Shown here in pieces: positions 10,737 through 51,010 of a stretch of 64,000 nucleotides of DNA. Made by a program: the position numbers and the translations under genes. Below the pieces are notes generated by a model. It had not been told where the DNA came from, searched no databases, and saw only the letters and a list, made by a program, of their open reading frames with translations. The stretch covers positions 310,001 through 374,000 of the forward strand of contig JAYWIR010000060.1 of assembly GCA_036172245.1 (NCBI GenBank). Reading direction: 5' to 3'. Every line of letters starts with the position of its first letter. Within the stretch, counting starts at the first letter, position 1. The stretch comes from Raillietiella orientalis. Lineage: Eukaryota.

Positions 10737-13700
10737 ATGGCGCGGCAAGTCGTAGCGTCCGTGGTGGCGGGACTGCTCACCCTGTGGCTGTGGACGTACG
10801 GGATCCTCACACTCCCGCTCTACTTTCTGCTGCAGAACCTCCTCCAGGAGAGGCGCTTGCCCAAGAGAAAGGTGAGTCTCCTGTTGCTGCTCCTCCGCCT
10901 CTTCCCATCCACAACTCTCCATTTTGCCTCCGGTCGCTCCGCCGCCTGCGAAGCTCGCCGACCCCCTTCGCCACCACCAACGCGCGCGTCGCTCCGGACG
11001 GTGGCTCGTCGCCGGTAAGCGCGGAGGGGGTGGTTAACTGCGCCGCGGCTAGGGGCGCGCGCCTGGTGCTCACCATCCCACCCACCTCCTTCTGCCGCCG
11101 TCCCCGGAGGGCTTCCACCCCGTCCTCCCCGCGGTGGCGGCACGTGACCTGGCTACCGCCTTCCGCCGCCGTCCTCCCCACCCCCATCCCCATTCCCCCT
11201 TGGACGGGGGGGGGGCGCTCGCGCGCGAGCGGCGACTAACCACCACTTTTTCCCGCCTCACTGGCAGCGCCGGAGCCCCGCGTGACCTTCTGGAGCATGG
11301 AGAGGGCAAGTCAAGGGGGAATTCTGGCAACGGAAAGTGACCGTGAAGAGGCGAGGCGGCGGCCGCAACGTGGGTGACTTTCGCTTTCGTGCGTCTGCGC
11401 GCCCGTGTCCTTTTTTTTTCTTTTTTCTTTTTTTTTCTATCGCCCACCCTCCCTCTTCCACCCTCGCGAGCGTTCCTTCGATCCCCCCCCTCCACTGCAT
11501 TTTTTTTTCCCTTGCGCGCTCTTGCGGCACAGCCCGGTCGGCACGGCCTTAACGGGGGAAGCCGCGCACGCGGAGGGGAGCACCCGCCGAGCCGCGGAAG
11601 GCCCAGGGCGGCGCTCCACAGTGGAGGAGACCCGCGGGGCGTCTCGAAAGGGGGAGCGTCCGCAGGAGCTCCCCACCGCGGGACCGCTTGCTCCGACGGA
11701 ACTCGCGGAGATGACCTTTCCTCCACCCTCCTCGGGAGTGGGTTCCCCGCGCCCCGGTCCTCCCTTTGCGATACACCCCCGTGGCGCTGGAGGAGAAGAC
11801 CCGGGACTGCCGGAAACACTCCGCCCCTTCGCCAAGGAAGTCACGTGGTCGCCGCCGCCCGGATCCGGGAAGACCTCCGACCCACTGCGGCCATCCGCTC
11901 CTGGGACTGTCTCTTTTTGCCTCCGCTCCCTCAAGCACCCCCCCCGCCGGTCCTGCTTTTGTCAGGCCGTCGCCCAGGCACACCAGGAAAAGACTCCGGT
12001 CGTCCCTTACGGCGAATTTCACTTCCGCCCCCTCCTCTTCCATTTCTCCTCCTCGTCCTCCCTTCCTATTCGTCCTCTCCTAGTCTGTTTCTTCCTCCGT
12101 TCCTCTTCTACTCTCTTCTCTTCTTCCTCCTCTTTTCCTCTTCCACTCCTCGTCTTCCTCCCTTCCTCATGCTATCTTCTCTCTCCACTCTTCCTCCCAT
12201 CCTCTCGAGAACGCTGCTCGCCTGTAGGTAACCATCTGTCCTCTTCCCCAGATCAACATAGTCTCCAGGGGAAGCAAGGAGATCGTCTGGGAGTGCGAAT
12301 CCTCCCCTTCGGAGCTGCGCAAGATCGTCTCGCGGGAAAATCTGCAGACATACAATGACGTGAGCAGAAGAGCGCACGCGTTCCCCCTGCATGCCCTTCC
12401 CCGGGTCCATCGCAAGGCGAAGGGTTCGCCGGTCATATGCGGCTTCTCAGCACCTTCCTCACCCGTCCATGGTCTCCAGGAAACTGAGGAAAGGGGGGTC
12501 GTCCCCCCTCCTTCTTGGTCCCCCGTACAAAGGGAGCAAGTCATATCCCCTCGACCGGTGGACCCTCCTCCCGCTCGGACCCTCCCCGGCAGCCGCAGTT
12601 CCACTTCACCCCCCCTCAGACGTGCTGCTCAGCTCCTCCCGCTTACCCCGGGGCCCGTTCCAGGTCGTGAATTACTTCCGCAGGCGGGACGTGGACTGGC
12701 CACTCCTGGGCACGCGGCTGGTGCTCGCAGAGGAGGAGGAGAGACAGAGCAATGGGAAGATCTTCAAGAAGGTAGCGAGAGGGGCGCGGCGCGGGAGTTG
12801 ACCCGGACTTGGCCCCTTGTAGTGCGTTCTCGGAGAGTACACTTGGCTGGGACTGCGGGACGCCCTCAAGCAGGTAGATGACCTGACCGTGGGGCTCCGG
12901 GATCTGGGACTGGGGCCGGGGGACCGCATGGCCATCTTCTCGGAGACTCGGGCAGAGTGGCTGCTGACCACCCTTGCGGCGTTCACCGGGAGAGTGACAG
13001 GTTGGAGGAGGAGTCGCGTCGCCGGTACCCCGTTTTCTTTTGCAGTAGTCACCTTGTACTCCACCCTGGCCAGCGACGCCGTGGCCTGCGCCATCAACGA
13101 GACGGAGGTCAGCTGTGTGGTGACCTCTGCCTCCCTGCTGCCGAAGCTCCTGCAGCTGCGGACGAAGATCCCGCTGGTCACCACGGTGATCTGTTTCGAA
13201 GACAGCTTGCGCAAGCTGACGGCAGACGAGAAGTCTCCCGACCCGTCCCTGCGCGTCCTCGCCTACGAGGACGTCCTTCGCGCCGGCGGCTCCCGGCAGG
13301 CGTCGCCACCGGCACCTCCCGCCTCCCCCGACGACGTGGCCATCATCATGTACACAAGCGGGTCCACAGGCGCCCCCAAGGGGGTGCAGATCACCCATGG
13401 GAACTTGATGGCATCGGTGACCTCCTTCCAGGACATTCTGTCCTCGGAAGGTGAAGTCTACATCGGCTACCTGCCGCTGGCGCACATCCTCGAGCTGTCC
13501 GCTGAGCTTTTCTGCTTCTTCAAGGGGACGGCCATCGGCTACTCGAGCGCGCAGACGCTCATGTACGGCGCCGCCCGCCTGAAAAAGGGTGTGCCCGGGG
13601 ATATCAACGTGCTCAATCCAACGGTGATGGCCTCCGTGCCGCTCATCCTGGATCGCATCTACAAAGATGTCGCCCGGGACCTGCGCTCACGCGGCCCGCT

Positions 13701-14700
13701 GACCGAAGCCATGTTCCACGCCGCCCTCGTCTACAAGAGCCAGTGGCTGCGCATGGGTTTCGGCACGCCCCTTCTCGACGCCCTCATCTTCAGCAAAATC
13801 AGGGCCACCCTGGGCAGCAGGATCCACCTCATCATCTGCGGGGGCGCAGCGCTGTCCGGGGAGGTGGAGGATTTCGTGCGCTGTGCCTTCTGCCCAGTGC
13901 TCCAGGGTTACGGCCTGACCGAGGTCACAGCAGCGGGCACCTGCATGACCCCAGACGAGCCCGAGCTGAACGTCGTCGGCTTCCCCGTAGAGGGCTGCAG
14001 GATCAAGCTCATCAACTGGGAGGAGGGCAACTATCGCGTGTCCGACCTGCCCAACCCCCGGGGCGAGATTGCCATCGGCAGCCCGACGGTCACTGTCGGC
14101 TACTTCCGCAACCCGGAGCTGACCGCCGAGTCCTTCGTGGAGGAAGGGGGTCTCAAGTGGTTCCTCACTGGAGACGTGGGTGAGATGCGCCCCAACGGCC
14201 AGCTGGCCATCATCGACCGCAAGAAGGACCTGGTCAAGCTCGTGCACGGAGAGTACATATCCCTGGGCAGAATCGAGACCGAGCTGTCCAAGTCACCCTA
14301 CGTGACCGGCATCTGCGTATGCGCGCTCCCGCACAGCGACCACACGGTGGCGCTGGTGGCGCCGGCGGTGCCCGCTCTTAAGGACCTAGCCACGCGCCTG
14401 GGAAAGCAGACCACGAACCTGGAGAAGCTGTGTGACGACGAAGACGTCAAGGCGGAGGTCATGAGGGACCTGCAGGACCTAGGCAGAAAGGGTGAGCCCC
14501 TCTCCTTCTCCCCCCCCCCCACCCATCTAGTCCCTTCTGCAGCTCTCCTGGCGAAGGTCGAGATGCCTCAGAAGATCACCATCTGCCACGAGAAGTGGAC
14601 GACGGAGAGCGGACTGGTGACCGCCGCGCTGAAGCTGAGGAGGAAGAACATAATCGAAAAATACAAGGAGGACATTGAGAGGATGTACCGCGGCGGTTGA
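10737..14700 (+). CDS. Acsl: Long-chain-fatty-acid--CoA ligase, ACSL3/4-like (about 710 aa, 6 exons)
   Basis: Exons 10737-10871, 12252-12359, 12664-12771, 12823-13000, 13046-14491 and 14543-14700. All introns are GT-AG and the joined length is 2133 nt. N-terminal hydrophobic anchor, LGTR...EEERQSNGKIFKK, AMP-binding IMYTSGSTGAPKG, YLPLAHILEL, QGYGLTE, WFLTGDVG, IIDRKKDLVKL, GLVTAALKLRR. Confidence 0.95.
12022..12205 (+). repeat. Polypyrimidine (CT-rich) low-complexity tract in ACSL intron 1
   Basis: About 180 nt almost entirely C/T, ending about 45 nt before the exon 2 acceptor. Confidence 0.85.
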
Positions 14701-17900: not shown

Positions 17901-18330
17901 AAATCCAACAGGGATCGTAATGCAGAGGAACGAATGTTTGTGTGTAAGAGGATGCATGGCACAACTGCAGGCTTCAAGTGTTGACAGTAACATGTGATTT
18001 TAGCATCCATCACCATAATTCAGTGTAACCGTATCCATTAAATGTAGACATAACAAGTAAATTTTTTTTTCCCCCAATTCTGTTATGTAACCATTGTCAT
18101 GAAGATTGTGTGCAATTTTGTTTGCTTTGGGTATGGTCATTCATGCACTTGGTTCATTGACAGCTGTGTAGATCCATCCATGAAATGATTATTGTGTTGG
18201 CAAGTTACCTTGGAGTACCCCAAATTCTCTATGCATAGACATAAATTCCTGAACTAGTGCAGGCGGAAGAGTTATAGAAAAATTTGATGCATTGTTTCTG
18301 AGGCAGTGGAAGCTGTAACTATAGTGTGCA

Positions 18331-20952: not shown

Positions 20953-20997
20953 TAGGAATACATCTGCAAATTTTTTTTTTTTTTTCTCCTTCCGCTA

Positions 20998-21003
20998 TTT
21001 ATT
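20998..21003 (-). promoter_or_regulatory. Candidate polyadenylation signal of ABAT
   Basis: TTTATT on the + strand is AATAAA on the - strand, about 27 nt past the ABAT stop. Confidence 0.5.
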
Positions 21004-21029
21004 ACGTATCTATTTAATTTTAATTTCGT

Positions 21030-23145: not shown

Positions 23146-26100
23146 TTACTGGAATAATATGGCAGAATTCATGGGCGGCAATTCAGAGATGCTCACAAAA
23201 TCAGTGCTTTTCAAATAATTAAGAGACATCTGAATCCCACCTAACCTTTTTCAGCTTGCCGCCCAGAAAGCAGCTGCAAAGACTTGCGTGGTATCATCAC
23301 CCCGGAATTTCAGCACGCTATCGAATTATTCTATTCCACTCTGTATCTTCCCAGTTTGTTCTCCGTATCATCCGTTTTATGGGAATGAAAATTTTGTCCG
23401 ATTCCCGGCAACATGAAGCGATCGATTGTCAACACCGTGCACCTTCCAGACGAACCAGACTTATCAGAATGCCTCCCTGTCCATTCGGCTCCCACAAAAA
23501 AGTCACGCCCAGGGGACTCGGGAGCTGGCCACTGCATCTCGAAGTTATCTTATCTCGAAAACACTGCTGCTGTGCCACCCCGTCCTTGACACAAAAGATG
23601 GTCACACCAAGGTCAACTTGGGCCACTGGCATTAGAAAAGGGACAAACCATGCACGACCGGGAGAGGAAGACACCGGGAAGGAGCGCGCCCGATTGAGGG
23701 TTGGGAAAAAGTCTCCACGAGGGAAGAAACCCCGGGGGAGAGGTGACGCGGCAACAAGAAATTCCACAGAACGGGCAGGGCTCTGAGGATTTGGAAGGGG
23801 ACGGCCCGAAGTGAAATTTCGGGCTTCACGTATTTATGTGCAGTGCAACAGCTTCCTTAGTCTCATAAAAAAAACGAAAATTTCTTATTTTATATAGTTG
23901 GTTTTGTTAAAGCCGATTAACATTCGCATGTCGAGTTGAATGAACTTTTTAAAAGGTTTTCACTTTGAACGGTGATGCCGTGATGGGAAAATACGTCACA
24001 CATCCACCTGGGAGCAGCTTCATTTCGTTTTTACTTTCATTCACGACTCAACCCGTTGATTCATCTGCTCCTTGCAGCTCCCAAAGGACCGGGAGATGAA
24101 GCGCGCTTTGGACCGCGACCGCTTCATAGGCGACACAGTCAGTTTTACTGTTCTTATTTACAGTTACATAATAGGTCACAGGGGGGGGGGGGAGGTTCTG
24201 GACATCCTTCCGCAGTTCCTCCTCTGCTCATCTGGGGATTTATGCAATTCGTGCACGCCCTTCATAATTTCGAAATCTGAATTTCTCTTGGAATATACAT
24301 GACACTCTGAAACAAAAGTTAATAAATAAGCACTCTCGAAATATGCGTCATTATTTGTAGAACTCTTGCGATTTATCTTCGAAATGTTCTGCATCTCAGC
24401 AAATTCTCATCAAATGGTGTTGTGGGTCTTGTTCTGGATTATCTTGGGTTTATCTTGCCATGCCTCGTGTGTACCTTTCCTACAACTGACTAGTGTCCGG
24501 AAAACAAAGATAAAAAGGAACTGTTGAGAACTCTGAATCAAAGTTTCATATTACTAAGTTTTAACATCACATTGCTTGAAGTGGATTACTCCTCCTGGAT
24601 TCTTCATAGTTTTTAAATTGATTAAATACATTACTTCCCAACTGTTTTGTTTTGCTTTTTAGACATTGATTGATAGAATTGTTAGTATGGAAATGCCATT
24701 CTGCAATTTAATGAGCGTCACTAATTGGAACATACCGGAAATTAAGAAAGAGAGTAGTAGCACTCAATGCTTTAATCACGCATCAAAAGAAATCAATACG
24801 ATTAATCACTTTTCAACTCTGGAACATCCGTGTTATTCAATACAAAACCACAATTGATTCCGAATCTCCCTTTTTTTTTCATATTCGACATAACATGATA
24901 CCATAGAGAAGGGAAAAGGTTACCGCGAGCTGCTACAAAAAGTAATCCTGATTTAATGTGAAATGTTGTGATTTACTTTCAATTCATTTTAATCATTTGT
25001 TATTTTGATTTTCATTCTTTTTATCTGCCTGGATTCTTTTTCAGTAAACAATAATGCTCACAGTTAGATACCTAGGCTACCTTTTCGAACACATAGATGC
25101 ATACTCCTACATTACTTCAAAGAGAGCTCAGAGTTTGGAAGTGCATGTTTCTTCTGAAGAGAAAAGTCTTTTCTGTTGAGTGATTCGTCGCACCCTACAC
25201 TTGAGGAGATAATTTGAGTGCATCCAACGGCTAGAGACATCGATGAAGCCAAATATAGTTATTAGCAATGAAAATAATGATTATTTCAAAGAAGAAAACA
25301 TCGACGTATGTTCGTCGTATGTATGTCCTCATAACATACTTGTTTTTAATGCTTAAACTGCACAGGAGAATGAATCTGGAATTATTCCAAGGAGTTTGTA
25401 GAAGAGTTTTGAAACTGCTCTAAATAGGGCTACTATTTTCACAATTTATAAAACGTTGATGTGCCCTGCATTGTAAACACTTTTGTTGGTCTGATGTTCC
25501 TTTTGAGAATCAGAAAATGATTAATCATTGTTTCCTATTTCTGCAACCGAGGTCACAAGTGAGTTTATGTAATGGATTTTATGTGACAGAAATATGATTT
25601 TATTTTTTCTTGAAGCACTGCGTATGTAGTTGTGTAGGAGAGAAGAAAACAGTTTTTTCTATGCGCATACTACCTTATTTCGTTAACTCTATATAACAAG
25701 CAGTACTGATTTCATCCTAAGAACGACCAGGTAGAGAGTAGTAACACATGTATGACATCACTTTTTCATTTCTTTTAAATGTACTCAATGAAGAACAGGC
25801 AAACGTCAGAGAAAAAAAAAGTACATTACAATTTTTTTGCACTGATAAGGAATTTCATTAGGATGACACCCAACATTATATCAGTTTAGCACAGATATAG
25901 GACACAAGCTTCCTCAGATGGCCTATGCTTTCATGTGTTGTGGTTCTCACAAAATACGGTCATTCCTGTTGACAGCGCTTTAAGTAATCTCCGTCATAAG
26001 CGTGTTCTGCATGCTTTTTTATAAACTTGAAATGATTGGAATTTCATTTTAGTTAGTAAGTGTGGGAGCTGATGCAAATGCGACAGTGTATCAACAAGTG

Positions 26101-27759
26101 CACATGCCATCATGAGCAGTGAATCCTCAATTTCTGCGTCTCCGTATGAAGATGTCAACCACTCAATCCCAAAGGAATTTTGCAAGAAGATAATGCGTTA
26201 TCAAGACGTCGTGAAACAAAAGCACTGGTGTGATCCGTTTGAGCAATGAGCCGGATCCAGGGCTTGGGAGACCTTGAGCATCCGGATCGAGCCTAACGCC
26301 ACAAAATTGGCTCGACCCGAGCATGCCACGAAAACTGCAGACGGTTTCCCTCATCATCCACAGGGGCGCCTTCACGGGTGCCAATTCCCATGCACTTCAC
26401 GAAGGGGGGGTGCAGGCAAGAAGTTCAGAGGTTGCATCAGCACCTTGAGTGCGCGTCTCATGGCACGCTGCTGAAAACCACCATTTTAGAAGCAAGGAAG
26501 CATGTTTCCACTTTGTCGTTTGCCGAAGTAGGAACGCTCGGAGTAAGAACACGGAAAAACGCGGCAAAAACGCATATTCTGCCCGAGAGAACCGGCAGCT
26601 GAAGGTCCGAGACTCCATGGCCTCGTGACCGAGTCTTGTCCTTCTGAGAGCCGGGTGAGGTGCACCTCGGACGATGGTGCGGTGGAACCGTTCTCGCTAA
26701 GCACTGTACTGCATCTCCTCGAAGCTACAGGGAACCTCATTGCATTAGGAATTTCCTGGAAAACGGATTTGGTCAAAACATTCATTATGGAAACTTATTG
26801 GGCTTTTCTTGGATGGCTGTGGACATACATGAATGATCCAGCATACAAAAGAGCTTGCATATAAGACATGCTTTTGTGCTACCTTTAGTAGTTCTTTTAT
26901 GTATTTTTCCTCGGCTTCTCCTTTAAACTCAGCACTTTGCTAAATAAAAAAACTGACTGGAGGTTGCTTCCAGCGTCTCACTGAAAATGCTCAATTATAT
27001 CGCCTCATTTTTGCAACTGTATAGTCAGTGGTTTTATTTTTTTTTTTGCTTTGCACTTGTACTGCTTTTGTTTGTTTTGTTCAAAACACTATTCAGGGAT
27101 ACTTTGCTCTCTATGTACACACTGCTCGTTGTGTGCTTCATGTTACTTACAAGATCCATAATTTTTTCCTACGCTGCAGACATAAAATATGCAGCACGAA
27201 CATCCGTGTTTGCTAGACAAGACATTTCAGTTTCAAGGTGATGTATTTGCATTCATTAATTTGTCTGTTTTTATCTGGAGTTGCACGTCACTAAATACAA
27301 TTACAATGGCTAATCAAATGCTCTAAATAAACTGCACGTACGCTGCATTCCTGAAAGAAGGATTTGATATGCAGAGGAGGAGGAAGATGATAAAAAATAT
27401 TTTGCTTCAGTAAATGGTTTACCTTTGGGAGGGGGGTAAGGGGGTATGTAGCTGATGTCATGAGAAACGCAGCAAGTGAAGAAAAAAAAAAAAATTAGAA
27501 AAGCAGTGAATGAAAATGCATGTTGGGAGTTGTGGGAATCCCTAAATTGACATTCCGTCGAACGTGTCGCGGACTCCCCCAAAGGCCGAGCAAAGCAGAA
27601 AAGAGAAGGAGCTGAACACAAATTAAATCATGGCACGAACCGGTGCACACGTAAATCCAAAACAGCAATTCAAACCAAACCTGCAGGAGCAAAGGCAGGA
27701 GGGGGGGAGGATCGGAAGTTCCGTATCCCGGAAATGCAGTGGGTGAAACTGTAATGGAA

Positions 27760-28250
27760 AACGAGACAAAACTGGAGTGGGGAGTCCATCGAGCCCGTTG
27801 GAGTCGAGGTCATCCGGGACGGACCTGCAGACCCACGATCGACAGGAGGCCGGAGGCAGGAGTGTGGGACTTTAGGGCCGGAGGGATTCACCTGGGAGGA
27901 GGAGGAGGAGGAGGTTCGGGGCGCTTGCAGAGAGCCCCACCGCAAGGGACGATCCCGGATCACCCTGGGACCGCCCCTTGCCACTCCCTTTCGAATTTTC
28001 CTCGGCGGTGGTTGAGGATTTTTGTTTTTTTTTTTGCCACGCCGCATCGGCATTCCGTTCCCTGCTGTGCTCACAATTTCGTTACCACTCGTTCATCTCC
28101 GTGCCACATCTTATCTTGTTCCAGGCCCAAGTGCCCGTCACTTCCTGGTGGATTCCTAATCGGACAAGTGTGAAAAAAGGGGCACGGAAACGAACGAGCA
28201 GCATATTAATTGATCCTTTTTGCTCTGTCCTTGATTTGATCCGGGCTGTG
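27760..28250 (+). mobile_element. Decayed DIRS-like reverse transcriptase fragment upstream of PAK
   Basis: Frameshifted SIEP, GRTCRPTIDRR (GxxRPIIDLR-like), DFRAGGI and QFRYHSF in RT order. Confidence 0.4.
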
Positions 28251-28835
28251 AATGGTGTGAGTTCATTCAGTTCTTGTCGACCACACCGGTTGTGAAAGTG
28301 TTGTGCGTTGCTTCAGCAAAGTCTTTGCGAATGTTTTTTTTTTTCTCCTTCTTCTTCTCCTTCCCCCCACCCCTCCTCCTCCCATCGTTCAGTTAAATCA
28401 CTGAATAACGTAACCGAAATGGAAGTGAACAGAAAACGAAGCCTTTCTTCAGAGTAGAATCGAAAATCTGCATCTCGTGCATGCTGAAGACCGTCCTGAA
28501 TTCCCAGTTGTGCGTTTGGCACTTATTGTGAATTTTCACAGTATTATTGTACGAATGTTAAGTATGTCTTGATTGTTTTCCATCCCAAGTGGATCTTGAG
28601 AGAAATCCAATGAAGTTGGCATTTTTTTTCTCTTCCTAAAGCGTGATTGTATTTTATTGACTAATTATTCTTTTATGTTGGATTACAACTAAAGTAATGT
28701 TACTTGTTTTCTTCTATTGAAAAGCTTGCAGTGCATACTGAAAACAAATGAAACCAAGTGACAGAGACTCAATTGTTATCCATAAAAAATGAATGGCAAT
28801 ATGCATTCAAAGAAGGACTTGAAGTATATGTGATA

Positions 28836-32384
<3,549 letters not shown>

Positions 32385-32493
32385 CTCTGTGATACTAGCC
32401 AGTCGCCTAAGTGCCAAGGTCCCAAGTGACAATTTAGTCTGCGCTTTAGGAATTCAAAGTTCAAAGCTGTGACTGTCATTTGGATATGCATTG

Positions 32494-32499
32494 AATAAA
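32494..32499 (+). promoter_or_regulatory. Candidate polyadenylation signal of Pak
   Basis: AATAAA about 110 nt after the stop codon, followed by T-rich sequence. Confidence 0.6.
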
Positions 32500-33299
32500 T
32501 ATTTACTTTTGTCACTTTTTTAATTCTTCCGTTTCTTTCCAAGTGGAAAAGATTTCTGCAGTTACTTGCATTGCGTCAGTGCTCTGAATTTTCCTAACAT
32601 TTCAATTCAAGTTTCTAGTTAGGGTTTGCCACCCAGCAACTGGGATGGTAGAAGACTGCTGGCGAATCGAGGTGCCAATAGTTTCTGGTTCTCCATCTGT
32701 TTGACACGGAAGTTGGGTGCACATCAGCCTTTTGATTCAGTGCATGTGTTCTAAATTGCCTTTTGGTTTATCCAGGACTATAAGCAACATGAATTGATCC
32801 AAGTGTGATCCTCACAGCCTTCCGATGGTATTCAATCAAACGTAACTGTAACAAAATGCCAGTTTTCCCCCGTTTCCACCATTGTGTTTCTCAACTTGCT
32901 GATCTCTTTGTATTGTACTACTTTGCGTTCCTACCGATGTGGCAGCCACATGTGTAATGAGTACCTTTTTCTTTTTTTTTCCAAGCCTGCGCCATTATTT
33001 TGCTTTTCCTCTGCCGGTTCTGCCGGTCGAGAACTCATCCTTGCTCACTTTGGGGCACAGCCCGACCTGCTGAACCGCAGTTTGCAGCAGCGTCAAAAAG
33101 CATCACCTGCAGCTGCAATCGAGCAACAGATGAGACCCCTTGCGTGTGGAAAATGAAGTTTCGCGCCGTTATGCGGATGATGCGCGCGGAAAAGGGCGTT
33201 TCCATCATCCCATACCCCTTCGATGGTTGCCGTGCGCCGGCACCAGTGGCCGATGCGCCGCGATTCATACCACGCGACCACGTGTGAGCCGCCCGGTCG

Positions 33300-34600
33300 C
33301 AGATCGCCGGTGTTGGCCACGGCTGAGCCGCGTTTTCAAGTCCGACGTGAAAATGGCGCATTGGAGGGAATCCTGGCCGAAGCACTGCATCACACAACGT
33401 CAAAGTCCCAGGTCGACCGTGACGCACGCCTTCATTTACAGATCGCGTGACGCGAAACTTACGGCGGCTGGGAATTTCACTTTGTGGCGGCGAAGAATAG
33501 GTGACCTGGCACCACCACCACCACCTCCCCGGATCGTCCTTAGCCAGCGGCTCATCGCAGAAGAACCGGCGTCCGTTCCTCGCGGACCCACCGGCGGGCG
33601 TTGAGGCTGCCGGAACGGGCGGCGGTGGTGCTCGCGTGTGTGGCTCGAAGGTTTCGCGACCTCGTTCCTGTGGCCTTGGCTTCGGGGTCGCTCCGTCCTT
33701 TGCTGCGAATCGTGTCCGAGGAGCACGCTTTCCAGGAAGACGGGCGGCCATCTCCTACCCAAGCAAAGAGGCTCGGCACGATTGCCAGCGTCTCACCACA
33801 CGAAATCGAAGACGCAATAAACAGAGAGCCCTCCTTTCCATTCGCACGGCGTCCACGCAGAGAGCCCCAGTGCGCAGTAGCCGTGTAGTAAGCCCAGCGT
33901 TGGTTGCGAGCGAAGAATGCACATGGATTTTCCTTGCAAGGATGATGGTGATTTTTTAAAAAAATAATCGGCCGCGTGGCGCCAGTTGTTACTCGGAACG
34001 GATGCTGGTCCATGGACCGAACGGTTGCTCTTCTTGCCTGCTGGTCGCGCTGTTGCTTGCGTGCCGCGAGGATGCTTCTGGCAACAGGGACCCGTTGATT
34101 CTTGCATTTGATTTCCGAGTTTTCATTACCCAGTCCCGGCAACGGCAGCAAGCAACAGTTTGTTCTCCGTTGGGGGCTTCCCCCCCTCTCCTTCCCTTCT
34201 TCCTGTGCGTGTTGATGCGTGTACACGACAAGCACTTCAGTGTGGGTTCTCCGCGTCGACTTGTTATACTAATCGAACTGTGTCCATAAACAGTGTTTCT
34301 ACTTGGCACTCTGTGTGTGTGTATATATATATACACATTTTCCCATCTTCTTCTATTTGTTTTTTGCTCTATGCACTTTGAATGCCAGCAACTTTTTCAT
34401 GCGGATCGTGTTCCAATTTCTTATACCAGAGAGTGCGGCACTGCTGTTGTTGAGTGTTCATTTGTAGTTTCCGCGTCCTCCCGGAAGGTACCGAAAGTCT
34501 GCTCATTTCTGTCTCCTGATTTCCGAAACGGATGCAGATCCCCGCGATTCTCAGCAGATTCAATCGCTCAAAGGGTTCGTTTGTTTCATTTTCAACGCGA
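33300..34600 (+). mobile_element. Decayed DIRS-like YR remnant
   Basis: AHWRESWPKHCITQRQSP, NRVRGARFPGR and LLSIRTASTQRA (LLALxTAxR-like) occur in YR order across frames. The 3' boundary is uncertain. Confidence 0.35.
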
Positions 34601-35309
34601 CGGTAGCTGCGAGCAACGGGATGAAAAGTAATTCTGTCCAGTTCCTTATTGAGGAAGTGACCTTTCTTTCTCCAGGGATGTTTCAGGCAGCGGACGCCGT
34701 GACCGTCGCCTGCGGCCTTCACATCGAAGTGCTCCCTGGAAGAGGAAAAAAAAAAAAAAAAACAGGAAAAGATGGGGAAACGTGGTACTGGTGCCGAAAA
34801 AATAACAAAAAAAAATAAAGTTGCAGGCATGCGGATCGGATTTCCTGAGCCCATTTTTCGTCCAAGGGGAAAAGGTGTTTCCTAATGGGAGGGGTGATCC
34901 CTACACTGCATAACCCGGATGTGTACGAGTGAAGCAGTGAGCTTGGGAATGATTTCGTCGTATGAGCTGCCTTTGCCCTCCAGAGGGGGACGCTGACCAC
35001 AAAATCCGGGCAGACCTTAGCCAGTGGACGAGTGAAGAAACGATTTTCCCACCGAATTTTGCGACGACTCACTCGCCTCCCAGGCTGTTTGCGCGTGCAT
35101 TTCCTGTTTTGAGTAAATTGCGGCGACACGGGATCCTCGGGTGATTCAAAATTTGCTATGAGAACGTTTCCTTGGAACCATTGTGTTTGTTCCGTTGGTA
35201 ACAAAGTTCGGTCCCGTCTTGGACAGCTGTCAGATGCATTCCATGGCCATTGTGGCATTCACATGGTAGGGTTTCCGAGCACAAAGCCGAAATGTTTATG
35301 TACAGCGTA

Positions 35310-36341
35310 TTATTTTAATAGGTTAGAAGCTAATAGGCAGTGGAGGTAGTAAGTGTTGAGTGTTTTCAGGAGATGCTTCCAGTAGTTGGCATCAAAGGGA
35401 ACTCTGTGCACTGCCGTTCCCACGTGCGTGTAGACCACTGTATCACACCAGAGGGCTCCGGTCACTGCCATCTGCCCTTGGATCTGCGTGTAAGTCCTGT
35501 GTTTCTTCCTCACGGACAGGAGCTTTCCGTCCGAGTTCACTTCCATGGGGAAGTGCGTCTGGGAAGCCGCCACGAAGGGATCGCAGTATCTCGCAGAATA
35601 GGGACACTTGATCTCCACGATCCCGTAAGGGATCAGTCCCTCGTAAAAGTCGAAGATTTTCCCGTCCGGCTTGGCTCCCAGCCATGGGTAAGCGGAGGAG
35701 ACGACGAACTCGCAAGGTTTCACCACCAAGCGGTGCCCATGCTGGTGCATGTACTCCTGGTAGATTTCCTTGGCCGTGTCTTCGTAGCGAAGGCCGTAAG
35801 CGGCGGAGCAAGCGGTCTTGAGCGTCGCGTTCGCCTTCTGCGGCTTCTTCCGCGAGTCTCTCGACGCGTACATTTTGTCAACGATTCTTTTGACATCCAG
35901 GTTCGTCTTCTTCACGATCGACGTGATGTCGTGGAACCTGGAGGCACCGATGGGTTTCGGCTTCTTCCGTCGCGTGCTCTCTCGAAGAAGAGGAAGGTCC
36001 TCCTCGGCGTCTTCACCAACAAGTTCTTGCTCCTCTTCCTGCTGGCGTTCCGGTCCGCGCGGCTTGCCAACGTCGGCTCTCGCGGAAACCAGAACCTCAG
36101 TGTACCAAGGGAACTTTGGAAAGCCATGGAATTCGTGAAAGTAGTTTTTTCTATGGGGTTCCAAGTCCTGGCCTGTGTTTATGTACACGCGGTAGTGCTT
36201 CCTTTGGGGCGCAAACGAGTCCTTCCACTTGCAAGCACCGCAGTCCTCGGAAAACAGAAGACGCGCTATGGATTTTCCGAGCAGGCTGTGTTTTCCGGAG
36301 ATTGCGTTCATCTTCTCGCTGCCCAGAGCATAGACGGACAT
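35310..36341 (-). CDS. YqaJ-like viral recombinase / lambda-exonuclease family PD-(D/E)xK nuclease, intronless (343 aa)
   Basis: Uninterrupted ATG-to-TAA ORF with an in-frame stop two codons before the ATG. Motifs: GASRF, YGLRYEDTA, PWLGAKPDG (PDG at 35669-35661), IVEIKCPY (EIK at 35615-35607) and YTQIQGQMAVTGALWCDTVVYT. Confidence 0.9.
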   Translation of the reverse strand: MSVYALGSEKMNAISGKHSLLGKSIARLLFSEDCGACKWKDSFAPQRKHYRVYINTGQDLEPHRKNYFHEFHGFPKFPWYTEVLVSARADVGKPRGPERQQEEEQELVGEDAEEDLPLLRESTRRKKPKPIGASRFHDITSIVKKTNLDVKRIVDKMYASRDSRKKPQKANATLKTACSAAYGLRYEDTAKEIYQEYMHQHGHRLVVKPCEFVVSSAYPWLGAKPDGKIFDFYEGLIPYGIVEIKCPYSARYCDPFVAASQTHFPMEVNSDGKLLSVRKKHRTYTQIQGQMAVTGALWCDTVVYTHVGTAVHRVPFDANYWKHLLKTLNTYYLHCLLASNLLK

Positions 36342-36649
36342 CCGTTACCATGGCTTCTGGCATATTCTTAGCGCCGAGCCTCAGTCCTTAAGAACGTGCT
36401 TCGTTCCTGCTTTCCTCTTCGGCTATCATGTTGCTGTTCGCGACAATTTCATTTCCTTTCTCAAGTAAAGCAAAAATTTAGCCAAATTGCAGGAATATGG
36501 AAGGATGGATGGGAAGCAGCAGCACCTCGCTTGTCGTTTTGACAGACAAAAATTAAAGAAAAAACACTCTTCAGAAATGCCCCACGAACAAAAAATGCAA
36601 GCAAGAAAATAAAGATGCCAACTTCTGGGACGTGCCTGTGACAGAGCTA

Positions 36650-39600
36650 GAAATCCCTACTCCTACAGTCTACTCTATGGGGGGCACAATGCGTTCTAAT
36701 GCGGTTTTGCACATTCCAGAACTTGATGTTGGAACTTCGAGCCGGACGTTTTCGAGCTCTTTAACGGTTGAGGTCCAAAGAAGAGATTGGAATCAGCTCG
36801 GAGCATCGAAAGGGCACTGAGTTAAGGAAAAGACCTCTGAAACTTCAATTTCCACTTGGTTTTACGAGTACTCCATTCTAAGGATCAATGAAGATATGTT
36901 TCTGCTTCCTTTTTTTTTTTTTTTTTGTAGAAACGGGTGCCTTCTGATGGCTGGAATTTCTCGCTCCGTAGGCACCTTGCCTAAGAATCTCAGACACAGT
37001 CAGATAGACACAGTGTCAGTTCTTGTTAAGTTTCACTTAGATACCTTTGGTAAAAGAACTGGGGAACGGATAACCAAGGAAGGGCACACAGTAAGGTGCC
37101 TTTTGCAGTGCTGCAGAACTCGGTGTTCCGAATCCCCTGGAAAGCATTCGCGGCCAAAAAATACAAACGTATTTATGAGCTGCTGCTCTGAAGCTGAGAG
37201 TGGATTCCGTTTCAGGTACCAGTTAGGGGTTGGTTTTTTGGAATCCAACCTGGTAAAGTGCACCTTTCATGTGGAAGCTCTACGGGGAGGGACCATCCTC
37301 GAATGCGACAACCAGCGCTGGCTGCTTCTCTCGGACAAACTTTGCTCATAGGGATGCTGGGCTGCTTCCAGAAGAACTTGCCAATTTCCGCGGAAGCCCA
37401 TCGAGCACAACGGAATAAATCGAGTGCTCCCTCGTGTCTGGCACCGGAGCTTCCAATCGCTGTGGTGTCCGATGAACACTTGCGGGGGACTCCCTGTTTC
37501 AGACATGGCTGCAGCGCGAAACTGTCCCCTAACTTTGGAAAACAGAGTCGCGATGCAGCTCCATCCTTTCACCGGTGCTTTCTTCTTTTCAAACAGCATC
37601 CGAAATCGGAGGTCTTTGCCACTTCACTCGCGGAACCGGAAGTTAACGCTGCTTTCGACATGGAACCTAAAGATTCCTCTCACTTGCATTTTCATCGTCA
37701 CCCGTGAGTTATTCTTCGAATTCTTTGAGTATACCACCTTAATCATCGAGGGAACGGTAACCGTTTCCATGGTTTCGTTTTCTTCCACAGGAGACGTGGA
37801 AATGCATGCCGAGGTCACAACCAAACGGCAGCTTGGAAAAAGCTGCCAAAGTTTCGTTTCCGTGTGAACGGCATGGGGGGGCGGATGTCCGAGGCGTCGT
37901 CCCAAGCACCACTTCCGTTCAGGCTGCTTCCTGTTGGCAGGTTCACCTCCGCCGACGGCACCTGGAGAATCCTAGTCTCAGTGTCCAAATCCACCCCCCA
38001 CCGATCCAACGGCGGCGGTTCTCCTTGTGGTTGTACAGCGCACGCTCGTCTTTTGTCTTCACGGGAGACCCATCCTTCCAGCTTTGGCGAAGATGAGGAA
38101 ATTCTCTCCGGAGGAAACCATCCGGAAGGACGGAAGTGGAGGACGACCATACGAGACCCTCGGCCTTAGGGCGTGTTTGACTCGGAAGACACGGAATGAC
38201 AACTGCCAGGCTTCCACGATTCACCGCAACGCATTCGAAGAACTGAAGATGCCTTCCCGAAATTGAGTATTTCAAGAAGCAGCCCGTGGTTTGATGCGAA
38301 TGGCACATCTCAACGGAGATCTGGATCGCATTCTGGAAGCTTCAAACCAGAACAGTCGCTCATTCCGATTCCCAGGCTCGTTGCAATTAGCAAGAAAGGG
38401 GAAACGAAATGCCAAGCAGGCAAGGAAGAGAAAGTCGGATGCGGAGACGACAGCGACATGCTGGAGTGCCAGCTACAACGCGTGTGTCGGTGGTCATGTT
38501 GCCCAGTTTCGAAGAATAAAAAGGGCCAACCAAACCATCCGTAGCAAGCGCTTGAAAGGAGCAGCCCTGATCCGGGTGGAGGGAAAACGGGCGAGCAGCC
38601 CTCGGGGCAAGAGTTATGGCTGGAACGAACGTGGAGTGCGCGAGAGGCAAGCAACGCCTCTGCTGGCTCATTGCCTCTTGGGTCAGTGAGTGCCAACAGT
38701 GGCGATCACGGTCCTAGCCAGGCAGTGCCCGAGGCAACACGCGCATGGGAATGGGATGCCCACGAGCATCCGGGAATTCCTTCAAAGGGCATTCCAGGGT
38801 GCAAACGGTCACACGCACGCACAAAGACGCCTAAAGGAGTGCATTGCGATTTGGTTGATTTTTTGCACGGTTCCTACGCAAACGCGTGGGCGAATTTCCG
38901 GAACCCCACGCGCTGCGGAATGAGCCCTCGCAAACGTCTGGATTGCTCTCTCTGTGGTGCTACACCGGTAGGCAGGAAGTACATCAGCGTTGGTCTGAAT
39001 GACATCGCCACCGCTTCCGGTTTCTTAATTTTCCTCCATTCTGTGGGGACATGGTGCCTTAGGCATAACACGGGACTGACCGCAGGATCCTGGCTCTACA
39101 GCAGAATTTTGACTCGGTTTGGTCGTCTCCGAGACGACTCGGAATTTCGAACGCCGAAGCATCGGCAAAAATTCTCGGGTGAGTTCCAGATTGTGGAACT
39201 TTTGTTTATAGATTGTTTCCCATCAGCAGACAAACTCGACGTCCATCTCCAAGAATGCGTGATGCTATTCATCTGTGATTCGAAGATTGCCCGGGTCGGC
39301 GGCCGTGTGGCCATAGCTGCCGCGCGCGTCGCCTGGCGTTGGCGGGTTCGCTTTGCAGGATGGCCTGTTCGGGTGCGGCTACACTGGCGGAAGCCGGAAA
39401 CCCCCGGACGCCCCCCCACGCCATCGACTGGCCGGGCTTGGAAGTTAACTCTCCGGGGTCCTTCCAGGAATCGAGCGAGCTCCTTCAGGGTTCCCTTGCG
39501 GTTGTGCAAATAGAGTCGTTCCTCCCCCCCCCCCTTCAAGGGAGGATGACCCTCCATTGCGTACCATGGAGTTGGTTGATTGATAGCCCCCTCGGGTGGT

Positions 39601-39990
39601 CACCTTTCCAGGGTGCAAGAAGCGCGCTGTTCCCTTTGGGGTTCCTCTCTTCAGAGGGGAAAAGAAGGGGCTGGTGGAGTCCCTCCGGAGAGAATAAGGA
39701 AGAGCCGGGAAAGCGGAGGAGGACTCCTTCCTCCAGAGCCTTCCTGGATTCATAGTGATCCCTTCAGGGTATTCCCTAACTTTGAGGGTCCACGTGAGCC
39801 CTCGGGTGGTGCCGACAGTGTGAGGCGGGCGGATCTTCACCACTTGATGTACCAAAAAGAAACGAAACCCGAGAAACAAGCAAACAAAGGCCAGAAGGAA
39901 AGCAGCGGGAACGGGAGGAGAACCCGTTCCCGCTGCTTTAGGGAGCTACACCTTTCTTCACACCCAATCTAAGACGGGATTTCCACTTGT
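36650..39990 (-). mobile_element. Decayed, near full-length DIRS-like retrotransposon (gag/pol junction, RT, RNase H, YR)
   Basis: In order on the minus strand: RPVDGVGGRP (PVGGRL-like), ADGKQSI, HHVPTEWRK, LPTGVAPQR and GFRKFAH (RT); FASNHGL, HLQFFECVAV and VWSSSTSVL (RNase H); VCPSLVI, LTRTDTV and KTSGSKF (YR). Shares nucleotide repeat blocks with other copies. Confidence 0.55.
39290..39990 (-). repeat. Dispersed repeat copy A (homologous to 43440-44225, 50780-51010 and inverted 52860-53060)
   Basis: Shared blocks: GGCGGCCGTGTGGC; TTGGAAGTTRAC.CT....GT.CCTTCCAGG; GAGCCTTCCTGG.TTCAT; GAAGGAAAGCAGCG..AACGGGAGGAGAACCCG. Confidence 0.9.
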
Positions 39991-41021
39991 CCGTGCTTCA
40001 GGCCAGAAGAGGGAACGCCCGCCAGCGTTTTTGCACAGAGGCCAACGTTCCGACCCGGTCACGCACACTGCTGCGTTGGGCGACACCTGAAGGCGCCTGG
40101 ACGGGGTCCGGATGGCAATCAGGCCTGGTGGTCCTTGAAGTGGTGCTTGCACGGAACCTGCTCTTCGGTGAGGTCACTGGAGAATCCGCTGCAGTGCACA
40201 CGGAACCGCGTTCCCTGACGATGGCCGCAAGAGCTGCCCACTCAAACGCGGCCGTGTGCCAACCTGCGTGTCGGTAGTCCCGACGGGAACGATCGAAGCC
40301 GGAAGTGAAGCGCCTTCGATCTCTCGAAACGCCCCGAAGGATGCTCTTTGTGCCGCAGCAAAGTTGTCCTGACCTCCGAAGACTGTCCCTCAGCAGAGAC
40401 TGATGGCGCCATCTTCTTTCGCTGCCTCTGAACGGAGCGAGGAAAATCTTCAGTTTGGCGAGCAGCGTGTGTTTTGTACATCGAAATGCAGAGCGGGGAG
40501 GGGAGGGGGGGAGGAACGAGAAACTTACGTCATAATCTATCGGCACGAAATATGAAGCAAAGGAAGAAAAACATTTTGGCTTTTATTTTCTAAATATTTT
40601 AGATTTGCGAATGCAAAACCTGCAACTTCTTCGCTGCCTTGATCACATTTATTTGCTGCCAACTGGAATGGAAGAAGAGGAGTATGCTGCTGCAATTAAG
40701 GAGAAGGCCACAGGAGAAAATGGAGGATATATATATATATATATATATATGCATACAACTATGCACACCCACATGCACATATTTTGTAGCATATTGTGAA
40801 AGGATGTGATAAGGGATTTTCGAAGTGAAAGTGCAGCTCCATTCGCGGGGTTACAGAATCAGCTTCCGTGTGATGGGTCTTTAGAAATCATCAGCTATAA
40901 TGCTCCCATCGCAGAGTGATGCGCACTGCTTGATGATCGCGGAACAACCACATCAACGATGAGATCCTAAGAGGTTACGGGCGGCGGAGACGGAAGGCGT
41001 CACAAAGATCTACGAAACCGT

Positions 41022-41053
<32 letters not shown>
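41022..41053. repeat. Compound (AC)n(AG)n microsatellite
   Basis: Read directly from the sequence. Confidence 0.9.
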
Positions 41054-41499
41054 GGAAAACTGCTGTTGTTAGGCAGCAGAATCGCTTAGAGCAGACGATG
41101 AACGAGACGAGTCGATTCACTGAATGAAATCATCTCCGGAGAAATAAAGTAATAACTCGCTCCGGGCTCAATCATGTAGACTTCCACCCTCTTTCCCCTG
41201 AGCGGCAAAACTTATTGCAGTTTCCTTTCCATATTTCACCTTTCGATTGTGAGGAAGTAATTACCCTTCATCTTCTGGAGGGATGAACTTCACGAGTCTC
41301 CTTCTTCCCTGCATCAAGTGTGAAACGTCCAGGTACTCGGAATGGCCGCACGCGCGGTCAGAGTAAGAGTGATGAAGGGGGTGACCCGGTGCAAACAAAT
41401 TACAGCAAGAATCACGTGCTGCCCGCACACGACCGGCGCCCTTTAAAAGCACTGGACGTGCGAAAGCTACCAACTAATGGGGAAGCCCTCCACGGGTTT

Positions 41500-44225
41500 C
41501 CATTCGGCTGGGTACACGGGAGAAGATGCAGATGAAAGCGCTGTTTCCCGGAAATCACAGGCCCCGACCGTCCTTCGTTCGAGCCCAGCTCCATGGACGC
41601 ACGATGGGCAAAGGATGCACTCTGATGGATGGGAACCTCGTGCAAGAAGCCAGGGGTGGTACCGGAGAGCTTCAGGTGATGCACACGCGTGTGGTGCACG
41701 AGGTGGTCTGGAATTCCCAGACGGGTTCCCGAAAGTGCGTCTCCGTTCCCATAGGGATTTCGGAGAGACAGAGCGGAGGCATCGTGGAAAAGGAGGCAGA
41801 GGTGGTGAAACGAAAGGGAAAGAAAGGGAAGCGATCGAAACGACAGTCCGGAGAGCTCTGCCTCTGTGTCTCAAAGATGCAAAGAAGAGACGAGAAGGAC
41901 GTCGGAAAAGTTGTGGGAGCCGCTAACGCACGGCGTCCGCTCGCGAAGGAAGGAAGTGCTCTGGTCAAGTGTTCGGTTTGGGCAGAGGTTTTACCCTTTT
42001 CAAAAGACTGTGCTCGGAATTCTCACATGTAGACGTTTACATTCGCAGAGTTTTTTTGTTGTTGTTGAGAAGCATCCCACTTTTCTACTAGGTTCCTAGG
42101 AAGAGTCGGGCTCTCCTTGGAAACCCGCGTCGGTGAGGATGGTTTCCCTCAGTGACCACCCTTCCACAGGAAGGGACAGGAGGGGCAGAGGCGCACGTCT
42201 AGAGGAGATGGACGATCCACTTTGAGAGCCCTCTCTCCCGTTCGGAACTTTTCGACGAAGGGCTTCGAACGGGAGAGAGGGCAGAAGGATAAGAGCGCAC
42301 GAGACTGCCTGCGTGCCTTTCCAGAGTCGAAGCCACCTACTTGGCCACCGTCCGCGTAGAAATCGGGGAAGGAGAGGGGGGACCGAGTGAGACATGGGGC
42401 GGTGTCGGTCGGCCGCTCCCACGGAAAGCTCTCGGGGCCCGCGCAACGGGAGAAGCTGACCGGGAGAACCTTCGAGCGGTGCCCTACGTCTATCCGAACC
42501 TGCGAAATCGCGGAGGATGGCACGAGCCGCTCTCCCCCGAAGTCCACGTGACGCGATCGGTTAATTTGTGCCGGGAGGTAATCCGCGCGAGGAACTCAAT
42601 CTCCCGTGAGCCACGCAGGGGGAGTGGAGTTCGAGTGGAGGGGGGGATCCACAGCAGGGCCGTGAGGAGGGAAATCGATAGCCGAGACAACGATCTAATC
42701 AACACGGACAAGAAAGGAGACACTTGGAATCCTCCTTTTTCCATCGCTGAGAGATATGGACGTAATTTAGGCAGCGTGGTGTCCGACATGGAAAAAAAAG
42801 GAGGGGGAAAGGGAAGGCCTGTCCCGACTACAAGTGGCTGCGTGGATGGGGGGGCGTGTTCCCACGTGTACGTCTTCGGCTTCCACTCTTCCTTCAGACG
42901 TCTTTCCGGGTCGATTGGCTTGCGAGCCAGCGCCAGGAGTGCGGGTCGGCTGCCAGCTTTTGTTTTTCGTGGAGGGGGAGGACGACGGGAGGAACGCCTT
43001 CGAGGACGTGCTCCAGCTCGTTCCGATCCGGGGGACCGACCGGAGGGAAGGGATTTCGTATTGCGGAGCTGGAGAGAGGGCTTTTAAGGGTTGGACGTGC
43101 CGCGCGGAAGAGCCTTGTGGGCGTAGCTGCAGGTGTCAGTGGGACGCGACGGTGCCACACCTTTCGCTGAAAGCGGGCAGTGGACACGAATGAGGCCACA
43201 AGTCCTCGAGCCGTACCTTTCGCGCGCGGTGCTTGGCCGTCGGCTCAGCATCGCCCATGCATCCGTATCTCGTCAGGGGGTCCTGCTCTTGGCCGCCATC
43301 CACCTGAACGGCCTTCAGCTGAGTGGCAAGCAGGCCGGACCTTCTGCAGCGCTGCCGCATTCACGGGAACTCACGGAGGCGCCAGTGCCCTCTGAGGTGG
43401 CGAGCAACGCTTGTCTTCTCCATGGATGCAGACTTCAGGCCCGCGTTGGCGGCCGTGTGGCTGCGGTGTCCACACGTCTCATCGAGCATTGCAGGTTCGA
43501 ACCCCGAGAACATGGGATGCGTGGGGGGATTTCGAATCTCCCCCTCAGGGTGACACCGGTTGACCTGAAGGCTTCGGGTGAGGCAGCAATGTTGGAAGCC
43601 GGAAACCACCGGTGGATGCCCCCGTTGGCTGGCCAGGATTGGAAGTTGACTCTCCAGTGTCCTTCCAGGAATTCAGGGAGCCGGTTCCTTTCTGGATTCC
43701 GCCTCCTGTTGGGGAAATGGAGCCGTTCCATGGAGACGGTTGATACCACCCTCGGGGGATTGTCTTTCAAAAGCGCACTGCTCCCTTCGGAGAGTTCCTC
43801 AGAGAAAATGGGAAGAGTTTCTCCAGGGTTCTCTTCAGAGGAACAACAGGGAGCGGTTCCGTTGCGGGTTCCCTACAGAGAAGAAACAAGAAGTGGCCTC
43901 TTCTCCGGGGGGTTCCTCAGGAGAGAATGAGAAGAGGTTCCCTTCGGAGATAACCAAGGGCGGCATTTCCCTCCCGAGTCAGAGGAAGGAACTACTTCCT
44001 CTGGAGCCTTCCTGGGTTCATGTGGTGGTCCCCCCTCCCGGGGTATCCCCTATCTTGAAGAGTTACACGTACACTCGGGTGACGCTGACTTCAAGAGCTT
44101 CACGAGCCCCCTCTGAGAAGGCGAACGGCTCTTCGGCACTCCTTGAGAACCAAAAAAAATAAAAGATAAAAGCTGGAAGGAAAGCAGCGAAAACGGGAGG
44201 AGAACCCGAAAGGATTTCCATCATC
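41500..44225 (-). mobile_element. Decayed DIRS-like retrotransposon (gag/pol junction and RT), including repeat copy B at 43440-44225
   Basis: Clear nucleotide similarity to 39290-39990. Minus-strand RT-like VLPLHEKQKL, GGFQVSPFLSVLI (YLDD region) and REIEFLA. The lower boundary is a guess. Confidence 0.55.
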
Positions 44226-50779: not shown

Positions 50780-51010
50780 CTCTTCTGCGCTGGATGGCAC
50801 CGGTTGACTCCAGTTGGCTTCAAGTGCGGCACCGTTGGAGGCTGAGAACCCCCGGATGCTTACCCCCGTCGACTGGCCTCCGGGATTGGAAGTTGACACT
50901 CTGGAGTCCTTCCAGGGATGCCCTCGGGGCGCCCCTCTGGTGGTGAAAAGGAAACCTGCTGATACCCCCTAGGGGTACTGCCTGTCTACAGCGCGCTGCT
51001 CCCTTCGGGC
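50780..51010 (-). repeat. Dispersed repeat copy C (short DIRS gag/pol-junction fragment)
   Basis: GTCGACTGGCCTCCGGGATTGGAAGTTGACACTCTGGAGTCCTTCCAGG and TGATACCCCCT...AGCGCGCTGCTCCCTTCGG match copies A and B. Confidence 0.85.

Follow-up and report, generated by a model that had tools for sequence, protein, structure and literature searches.

We analysed a 64,000-nt stretch of the genome of Raillietiella orientalis (assembly GCA_036172245.1, contig JAYWIR010000060.1, positions 310,001 to 374,000 of the forward strand; hereafter the window, numbered from its first nucleotide) around an intronless open reading frame (ORF) of 343 codons located on its reverse strand. This ORF is a genuine coding sequence and encodes a PD-(D/E)XK nuclease of the lambda-exonuclease/YqaJ fold. 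The comparison with its relatives suggests that the gene is probably a solitary, 5'-shortened orphan of the exonuclease encoded by the second ORF (ORF2) of ISL2EU-type transposons, standing without a transposase and without a detectable tyrosine recombinase (YR). The coordinates of the gene, of its motifs and of the surrounding features are collected in Table 1.

An intact nuclease of the lambda-exonuclease/YqaJ type

In a 300-nt scan of the 64 kb, strong three-base periodicity was observed only in the nuclease ORF, in the ORF of a host acyl-CoA ligase and in one exon of the host gene for the p21-activated kinase (PAK). In the nuclease gene, this coding-type periodicity spans the entire ORF, the N-terminal 160 codons included, and ends at both ORF borders. 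The GC content at the first, second and third codon positions (GC1, GC2 and GC3) is 0.54, 0.39 and 0.70, respectively, with a GC content of 0.50-0.53 in the flanks, and an in-frame TAA is found two codons 5' of the ATG. When the window was searched with a hidden Markov model (HMM) of the family, the nuclease frame was recognised with an E-value of 3.9e-71 and every other frame gave an E-value of at least 0.19; no second significant copy of the nuclease was detected by this HMM in the 64 kb. The strand opposite to the gene also contains a stop-free frame in register with the nuclease codons, for which zero Pfam matches were obtained. This frame is open because the sense ORF is free of TTA, CTA and TCA as far as its last eight codons, in which all four of its TTA/CTA codons are located. 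The C-terminal tail specified by these codons (LLASNLLK) differs in composition from the remainder of the ORF.

The product of the ORF belongs to the YqaJ/lambda-exonuclease branch of the PD-(D/E)XK nucleases. Pfam identified a YqaJ domain (PF09588) at aa 128-296 (nt 35454-35960) with an E-value of 4e-13 and a score of 50.3 bits, the curated cut-off being 22, and two phage exonuclease PHROGs matched the ORF weakly. The motifs G183/E187, P225-D226, E243-I-K245 and Q286-x-Q288-x-Q290 fall on columns that are conserved in the family. In an alignment of 150 sequences, K245 is invariant and E187, D226 and E243 are conserved in at least 90%, while D226, E243, K245, Q286, Q288 and Q290 occupy invariant or nearly invariant columns. 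The predicted metal-binding and catalytic residues of the nuclease are intact, and the preliminary description of this DNA, which had reported an intact frame of 343 codons with the motifs E, PD, EIK and QxQxQ, was correct on this point. Over the core of the protein, 5 of 29 conserved columns are mismatched, which lies inside the range of the relatives (mean 3.0, maximum 7).

A model computed with AlphaFold2 (AF2) on the 150-sequence alignment reached a mean predicted local distance difference test score (pLDDT) of 79.2 and a predicted template modelling score (pTM) of 0.76. Considered in blocks of ten residues, aa 171-340 mostly scored 86-98 and aa 121-170 lower, 64-96, and residues 1-48 were disordered with a pLDDT below 50. 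Submission of this model to Foldseek returned LHK-Exo (3syy, E 1.3e-7) as the best match, followed by lambda exonuclease, with E-values ranging from 1e-7 to 1e-5; the matches to 3syy, 3sm4 and 1avq had a probability of 1.00 and target TM-scores of 0.49-0.65. The family profile also matched these structures by sequence (E 1.3e-27 for 3syy and 3.5e-12 for 1avq). The window nuclease therefore resembles lambda exonuclease (Red-alpha; 1avq, 3slp) and the Laribacter LHK-Exo (3syy) in its fold, in the catalytic Asp/Glu-x-Lys and in the Gln motif. However, the identity in structural alignments is just 16-19%, and the window protein is longer by about 125 residues at its N-terminus, is missing the Trp of the W...R...TAS motif and carries a Lys in place of the family Arg that aligns with the Arg of lambda exonuclease.

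This N-terminal motif is degenerate in the window ORF. A 9-residue in-frame deletion removes its Q and its W, R is changed to P and T to G, and only A-S-.-F and one T survive. Mismatches affect 6 of the 10 conserved columns of the motif, against a mean of 1.3 in the 31 relatives of full coverage, and 5-7 mismatches are reached elsewhere only by truncated fragments. The Lys stands in the Arg column that aligns with the Arg of W-H-K-L-R in lambda exonuclease, whose N-terminal motif, this Arg included, we take to help hold the 5' phosphate.

Relationship to the second ORF of ISL2EU elements

An exhaustive HMMER search returned 4444 cluster representatives at an E-value of 1e-3 or lower, and 972 at 1e-10 or lower. 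The top identity to the window ORF was 43-46% among 1.84 billion representatives, and most matches spanned only aa ~165-337. The nearest clusters are eukaryotic, Cnidaria, Arthropoda and Chordata being the most frequent. Long relatives are composed of SAP, SWIM, a linker and YqaJ, some with a C-terminal PHD finger, and one relative is fused to a Mutator-like transposase. ISL2EU elements are described in the literature as encoding a transposase with DDE, HTH and THAP parts and, in a second ORF, a YqaJ-domain exonuclease, and are placed in a PIF/Harbinger-like superfamily termed 'PHIS' (PMC4482050, PMC9179366); they are given a size of about 4.8 kb, terminal inverted repeats (TIRs) that begin with GG and a distribution restricted to animals (PMC4482050).

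The genomic context of the gene was analysed at the 80 metagenome loci that rank best among the relatives, with 29-44% identity to the window ORF. Four near-duplicates were dropped, and 138 ORFs of at least 160 aa, from 45 of the 49 loci of at least 4 kb, were scanned with Pfam. DDE_Tnp_4 was identified, mostly together with HTH_Tnp_4 and THAP, in the ORF that faces the YqaJ gene at its 3' end in 38 of these 45 loci. No tyrosine recombinase was identified in any of the 45; RVT_1 was found once, 4.5 kb off, and a retroviral-type integrase zinc domain once. We also built a local transposase HMM from 17 loci and ran it on all 80. It detected a convergent partner directly downstream in 61 of the 80, a count which is partly so by construction, as 17 of these 80 had supplied the HMM. 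Where the downstream flank measured 1500 nt or more (49 loci), the partner was detected in 46. Every one of the 61 partner transposases lies downstream and convergent, arranged tail-to-tail with the YqaJ gene within about 70-1500 nt. One of the three partnerless loci with ample flank, L118, is a frameshifted copy of the L123 type, an element of which another locus contains a complete copy. Near-identical complete ISL2EU copies and decayed copies of the same element were observed among L086, L087, L090, L091, L092, L123, L126 and L118; in the complete copies, an ORF2 of 594 aa faces a THAP-HTH-DDE transposase of 519 aa with ~300 nt between them.

Since the closest loci show the published two-gene layout, we assigned the window ORF to the ISL2EU second-ORF lineage. 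The preliminary description had remarked that animal YqaJ domains travel with ISL2EU, and this lead was correct, as the closest relatives are ISL2EU second ORFs. A search of metagenome contigs for close relatives of the window ORF gave 86 pattern matches, none of which was confirmed.

Comparison with full-length relatives indicates which part of ORF2 the window gene may represent. The sequence Y-R-V-Y-I-N (aa 50-55) pairs with F-D-V-Y-I-N of these relatives and the linker motif F-P-K-F-P-W with F-P-R-F-P-L, and the N-terminal extension is therefore collinear with the middle of ORF2. The AF2 block containing the linker motif (aa 71-80) has a pLDDT of 91. Searched alone, aa 1-135 showed no significant similarity (best E 2.0). 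A full-length ORF2 HMM of 595 positions, constructed from 17 sequences, matched the window ORF with an E-value of 3e-54, only over positions 399-587 (aa 132-339). Neither Pfam nor this HMM detected SAP or SWIM in the ORF, or a remnant of them 5' of it. As judged from the sequence, the window ORF corresponds to roughly the last 55% of an ORF2 of ~590 aa, comprising the linker and the nuclease.

The transposase is missing as well. The transposase HMM, applied to the window translated in six frames, gave a best E-value of 0.85, away from the nuclease ORF, and tblastn with 17 transposases of the relatives gave nothing below E 0.07 in the window. Together with the Pfam scans of the flanks presented below, these results bear out the earlier remark that no partner transposase is visible. 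The window ORF is thus like ISL2EU ORF2 in that it belongs to the same protein family and is collinear with it from the linker to the C-terminus. Unlike ISL2EU, it has no transposase within reach, no SAP/SWIM half, a 9-residue deletion, and neither recognised TIRs nor a recognised AT duplication.

We favour the reading that the window gene is such an orphan: a copy from the ISL2EU second-ORF lineage that would have lost both its SAP/SWIM half and the tail-to-tail THAP-HTH-DDE transposase. Several points weigh against it. The identity to ISL2EU-linked relatives is 29-44% and the comparison is tree-free, so that the gene may represent a separate, non-mobile YqaJ lineage. The transposase-linked relatives were drawn from metagenome contigs of unassigned host, and the proportion of 61 of 80 is partly circular, the 38 of 45 loci counted with Pfam being the independent figure. 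No TIRs or target-site duplication were found around the ORF, hence there is no direct mark of insertion, and copy number was assessed within the 64-kb window only. Finally, 343 open codons and 5 of 29 mismatches in the core, with no trace of the partner, suggest a fit with purifying selection at least as good as that with decay.

Alternative origins of the gene

This last point bears on domestication, by which the host would have captured an ISL2EU exonuclease, trimmed it to linker and nuclease and kept it under purifying selection as a single-copy DNA-end enzyme beside PAK. The preliminary description had named a domesticated nuclease under selection and a recent insertion as further candidate explanations. 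We consider domestication rather unlikely, even though many properties of the gene are consistent with it. The frame is intact and periodic throughout, the conservation of its core does not depart from that of the relatives, and the deletion in the N-terminal motif keeps the frame. No trace is left of the partner gene or of the N-terminal half, the nuclease being untouched, and according to a rough estimate 343 codons would soon close without selection, tolerating a neutral divergence of a few percent at most. The 64 kb contain no further significant copy. In composition the ORF is like the host acyl-CoA ligase gene and unlike its own flanks; as that host gene is intronless and GC3-rich, these two properties do not by themselves identify an ORF as foreign. 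However, no orthologue is known, the best identity being 46% in the 1.84 billion representatives and the metagenome scan having yielded none close. The loss of conserved residues from the end-binding motif suggests relaxed constraint, and a recent deletion or rearrangement removing the partner would leave a young neutral ORF of identical appearance. The domestication of PIF/Harbinger transposases and of their Myb partners is known; the matches listed in the full-text literature included none in which the ISL2EU nuclease partner is reported as domesticated.

It is very unlikely that the ORF is part of an autonomous ISL2EU element whose transposase is too divergent or too distant to be recognised. 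The two-gene layout of the relatives would be in keeping with such an element, and the DDE regions of two ISL2EU transposases matched weakly at 7322-7669 (-) in tblastn (E 0.18 and 0.32; 24-25% identity over ~110 aa). However, this site is 28 kb from the nuclease ORF and overlaps a 365-aa frame without Pfam match, whereas the partner is directly downstream and convergent in 61 of 61 partnered relatives. The equivalent stretch of the window (32.4-35.3 kb, +) has no match to Pfam or to the lineage HMM, and ORF2 itself is truncated. Lacking a transposase, a full-length ORF2 and recognised ends, the window ORF does not qualify as part of an autonomous ISL2EU element.

As to these ends, no credible TIRs starting with GG and no AT target-site duplication were recognised around the nuclease ORF, of which the 64 kb offer one copy only, too few to define the ends of an element. 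BLAST of the window against itself revealed 7 short repeat pairs, none of them bracketing the ORF. The only bracketing inverted pair consists of 17-nt A/T runs (34746-34762 and 36910-36926), situated 550-570 nt past each ORF end, and its similarity stops inward at GGAA. We rejected this pair as TIRs, as it is of low complexity and six runs of at least 15 nt are present in the 64 kb. With six such runs, about one close inverted pair is expected by a rough estimate, and the pair is therefore probably due to chance.

The preliminary description had placed the nuclease between two YR remnants, one of them called DIRS-like, as the possible cargo of a YR retroelement. According to this proposal, the gene would be the cargo or the neighbour of a new kind of element whose other genes are dead. 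It came from an unaided reading of the flanks only, and we regard it as extremely improbable. Pfam was run on the region 31000-42500, where it gave scattered sub-threshold matches only, besides the nuclease ORF itself and the kinase exons of PAK. None of the 127 stop-to-stop frames of at least 50 aa on both strands of this region matched Phage_integrase, RVT_1, RNase H, methyltransferase, DDE or THAP (E of 0.1 or lower), and none of 71 frames of 28-49 aa (32400-35320 and 36330-39700) matched any Pfam family, these three first-named ones included, at an E-value of 0.05 or lower. A YR motif, written as a regular expression, had zero matches in any frame of the window. The flanks of the ORF show no coding periodicity and no long terminal or inverted repeats. 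Phage_integrase was found by Pfam in none of the 149 proteins closest to the window ORF, just as no YR was found in the 45 relative loci, and an element combining a YR retroelement with YqaJ was absent from the matches listed in the full-text literature, which include a preprint on a Polinton-like virus whose entry points to no such element. Nothing in common with DIRS/Ngaro retroelements was found: signals of YR, reverse transcriptase (RT), RNase H and methyltransferase are missing, and so are terminal repeats. The two remnants were thus not found, and with no YR or RT signal beside the ORF the cargo proposal is unsupported. The sensitivity of Pfam to eukaryotic YRs is limited and frameshifts lower detection further, so that a heavily decayed YR may lie beside the nuclease ORF below this sensitivity.

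An endogenous viral element, in which the alkaline exonuclease of a herpes-like or giant DNA virus would have integrated in the host genome, is hardly credible. Viral alkaline exonucleases (PF01771; KSHV SOX, EBV BGLF5) belong to the same superfamily: the family profile matches KSHV SOX and EBV BGLF5 at E 9e-7 to 3e-5, many relatives of the window ORF match PF01771 (97 of the 150 aligned sequences), and in one genome paper YqaJ and herpes exonuclease domains are filed under endogenous viral elements (PMC7826175). Unlike these enzymes, the window ORF has no PF01771 match at an E-value of 1 or lower and no viral gene context, no other viral gene being detectable within 11 kb. Relatives in viral contigs (50 loci, the best in dense small contigs and giant-virus bins) share 25-36% identity over part of the core and are more distant than the transposon-linked relatives; at this distance we rejected the viral contigs as a guide to the window ORF.

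Genomic surroundings and possible role

Table 1. Positions of the nuclease gene, its motifs and the surrounding features in the window.
Feature	Position	Strand	Remarks
Nuclease ORF, ATG to TAA	35310..36341	-	343 aa + TAA stop; lambda-exonuclease/YqaJ type, probably of ISL2EU ORF2 lineage
Nuclease core, aa 127-339	35325..35963	-	family HMM match
Catalytic-residue span	35607..35783	-	E187 (35781-35783), D226 (35664-35666), E243 (35613-35615), K245 (35607-35609)
Q286-I-Q288-G-Q290 motif	35472..35486	-	family-conserved columns
Degenerate N-terminal motif, aa 120-136	35934..35984	-	compared with family E..T..Q.....W...R..R.TAS.F
Linker motif F74-P-K-F-P-W79	36105..36122	-	common to long relatives (FPRFP, YPKFP, FPAFP)
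Antisense stop-free frame, codon-aligned with nuclease ORF	35337..36368	+	344 codons; not a gene
Downstream flank	32373..35309		place of the convergent THAP-HTH-DDE transposase of relatives; no protein-family signal, no coding periodicity
Upstream flank	36342..39600		expected site of the SAP/SWIM half of ORF2 or of the claimed YR; no protein-family signal
PAK (p21-activated kinase), host gene	30214..32372	+	convergent with nuclease ORF; stops 2.9 kb apart
Long-chain acyl-CoA ligase (ACSL3/4-like), host gene	12823..14697	+	uninterrupted 625 codons; AMP-binding E 1.9e-70

The PAK gene was delineated by tblastn as exons at 30325-30420, 30677-31384, 31441-31821, 31862-32065 and 32115-32372, with at least four introns of about 256, 56, 40 and 49 nt. 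Its kinase domain is ~90% identical to crustacean and mite Pak and very near to human PAK1/3. The block containing this gene is AT-rich and CpG-depleted, with an observed/expected (o/e) CpG ratio of 0.27 and a GC3 of 0.34-0.41. The acyl-CoA ligase ORF has a GC3 of 0.84 and a CpG o/e of 0.86. It is 80% identical to one assembly protein and 41-47% identical to all named animal ACSLs, and is apparently a highly divergent, intronless host gene. The earlier statement that all host genes of this region contain many introns thus holds for PAK but not for the acyl-CoA ligase, whose ORF is uninterrupted.

The window is split in composition. The block at 16000-32500 that includes PAK has 36-47% GC, and most of the 1-16 kb and 42-64 kb regions 58-69%. 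In these GC-rich regions, no sustained periodicity was observed outside the ACSL ORF, although isolated 300-nt blocks attain a periodicity range of 0.25-0.26, and among frames of at least 110-120 aa a Pfam match was obtained only in the ACSL gene. It is unusual for an AT-rich, CpG-depleted gene to have GC-rich non-coding DNA next to it.

Several minor features were observed elsewhere in the window. A candidate YqaJ relic at 43087-43272 (-), 'GLIRVHCPLSAKG', was rejected, as its matches are not significant (tblastn E 0.006-0.014 in a small database; HMM E 2.9 and 0.25). The frame reads ...CGLIRVHCPLSAKGVAP..., which resembles the fGLlEvKCPys box of the nuclease family, and may be a very old relic. 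A dispersed repeat of ~150 nt is present in three copies that are 74-83% alike (39368-39522, 43573-43729 and 50792-50919) and may be of the type of a short interspersed element or of a miniature inverted-repeat transposable element; a local tandem-like repeat is found at 57242-57619. A stop-free frame of 322 codons at 38545-39510 (+) has no Pfam match and no codon periodicity and looks non-coding, although it is long for chance at the local GC content (p about 0.1 by a rough estimate). Rfam and tRNA scans of the window found nothing.

If expressed, the window protein is predicted to degrade double-stranded DNA from its ends as a Mg2+-dependent 5'->3' exonuclease whose end-binding pocket is altered. 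The orphan gene would be incapable of moving by itself. Its product could work in trans on ISL2EU copies located at other genomic sites, be of use to the host, or have no role at all. The role of the second ORF in ISL2EU transposition has yet to be established according to the literature (PMC4482050), and a function of ORF2 in end resection at excision or in donor-site repair would be speculation.

In genome papers, YqaJ-domain genes appear as a common multigene family linked to transposable elements in invertebrates, routinely filed with transposon or viral domains (PMC10225492, PMC7826175, PMC13289751). As it stands, the finding of a new gene of the ISL2EU second-ORF lineage in a known family therefore matters little. 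Its value is corrective, in that an element combining a tyrosine recombinase with an exonuclease is unsupported and the gene is assigned to the ISL2EU second-ORF lineage instead. An orphan that is intact without its transposase would be a place to study the nuclease alone, only if selection on the ORF is demonstrable. Should domestication be true, the gene would be of moderate interest, as a single-copy end nuclease serving the host, retained after the transposase and the DNA-binding SAP/SWIM half had been discarded, with a remodelled 5'-end pocket that has a 9-residue deletion and lacks the conserved Trp, and placed tail-to-tail with PAK.

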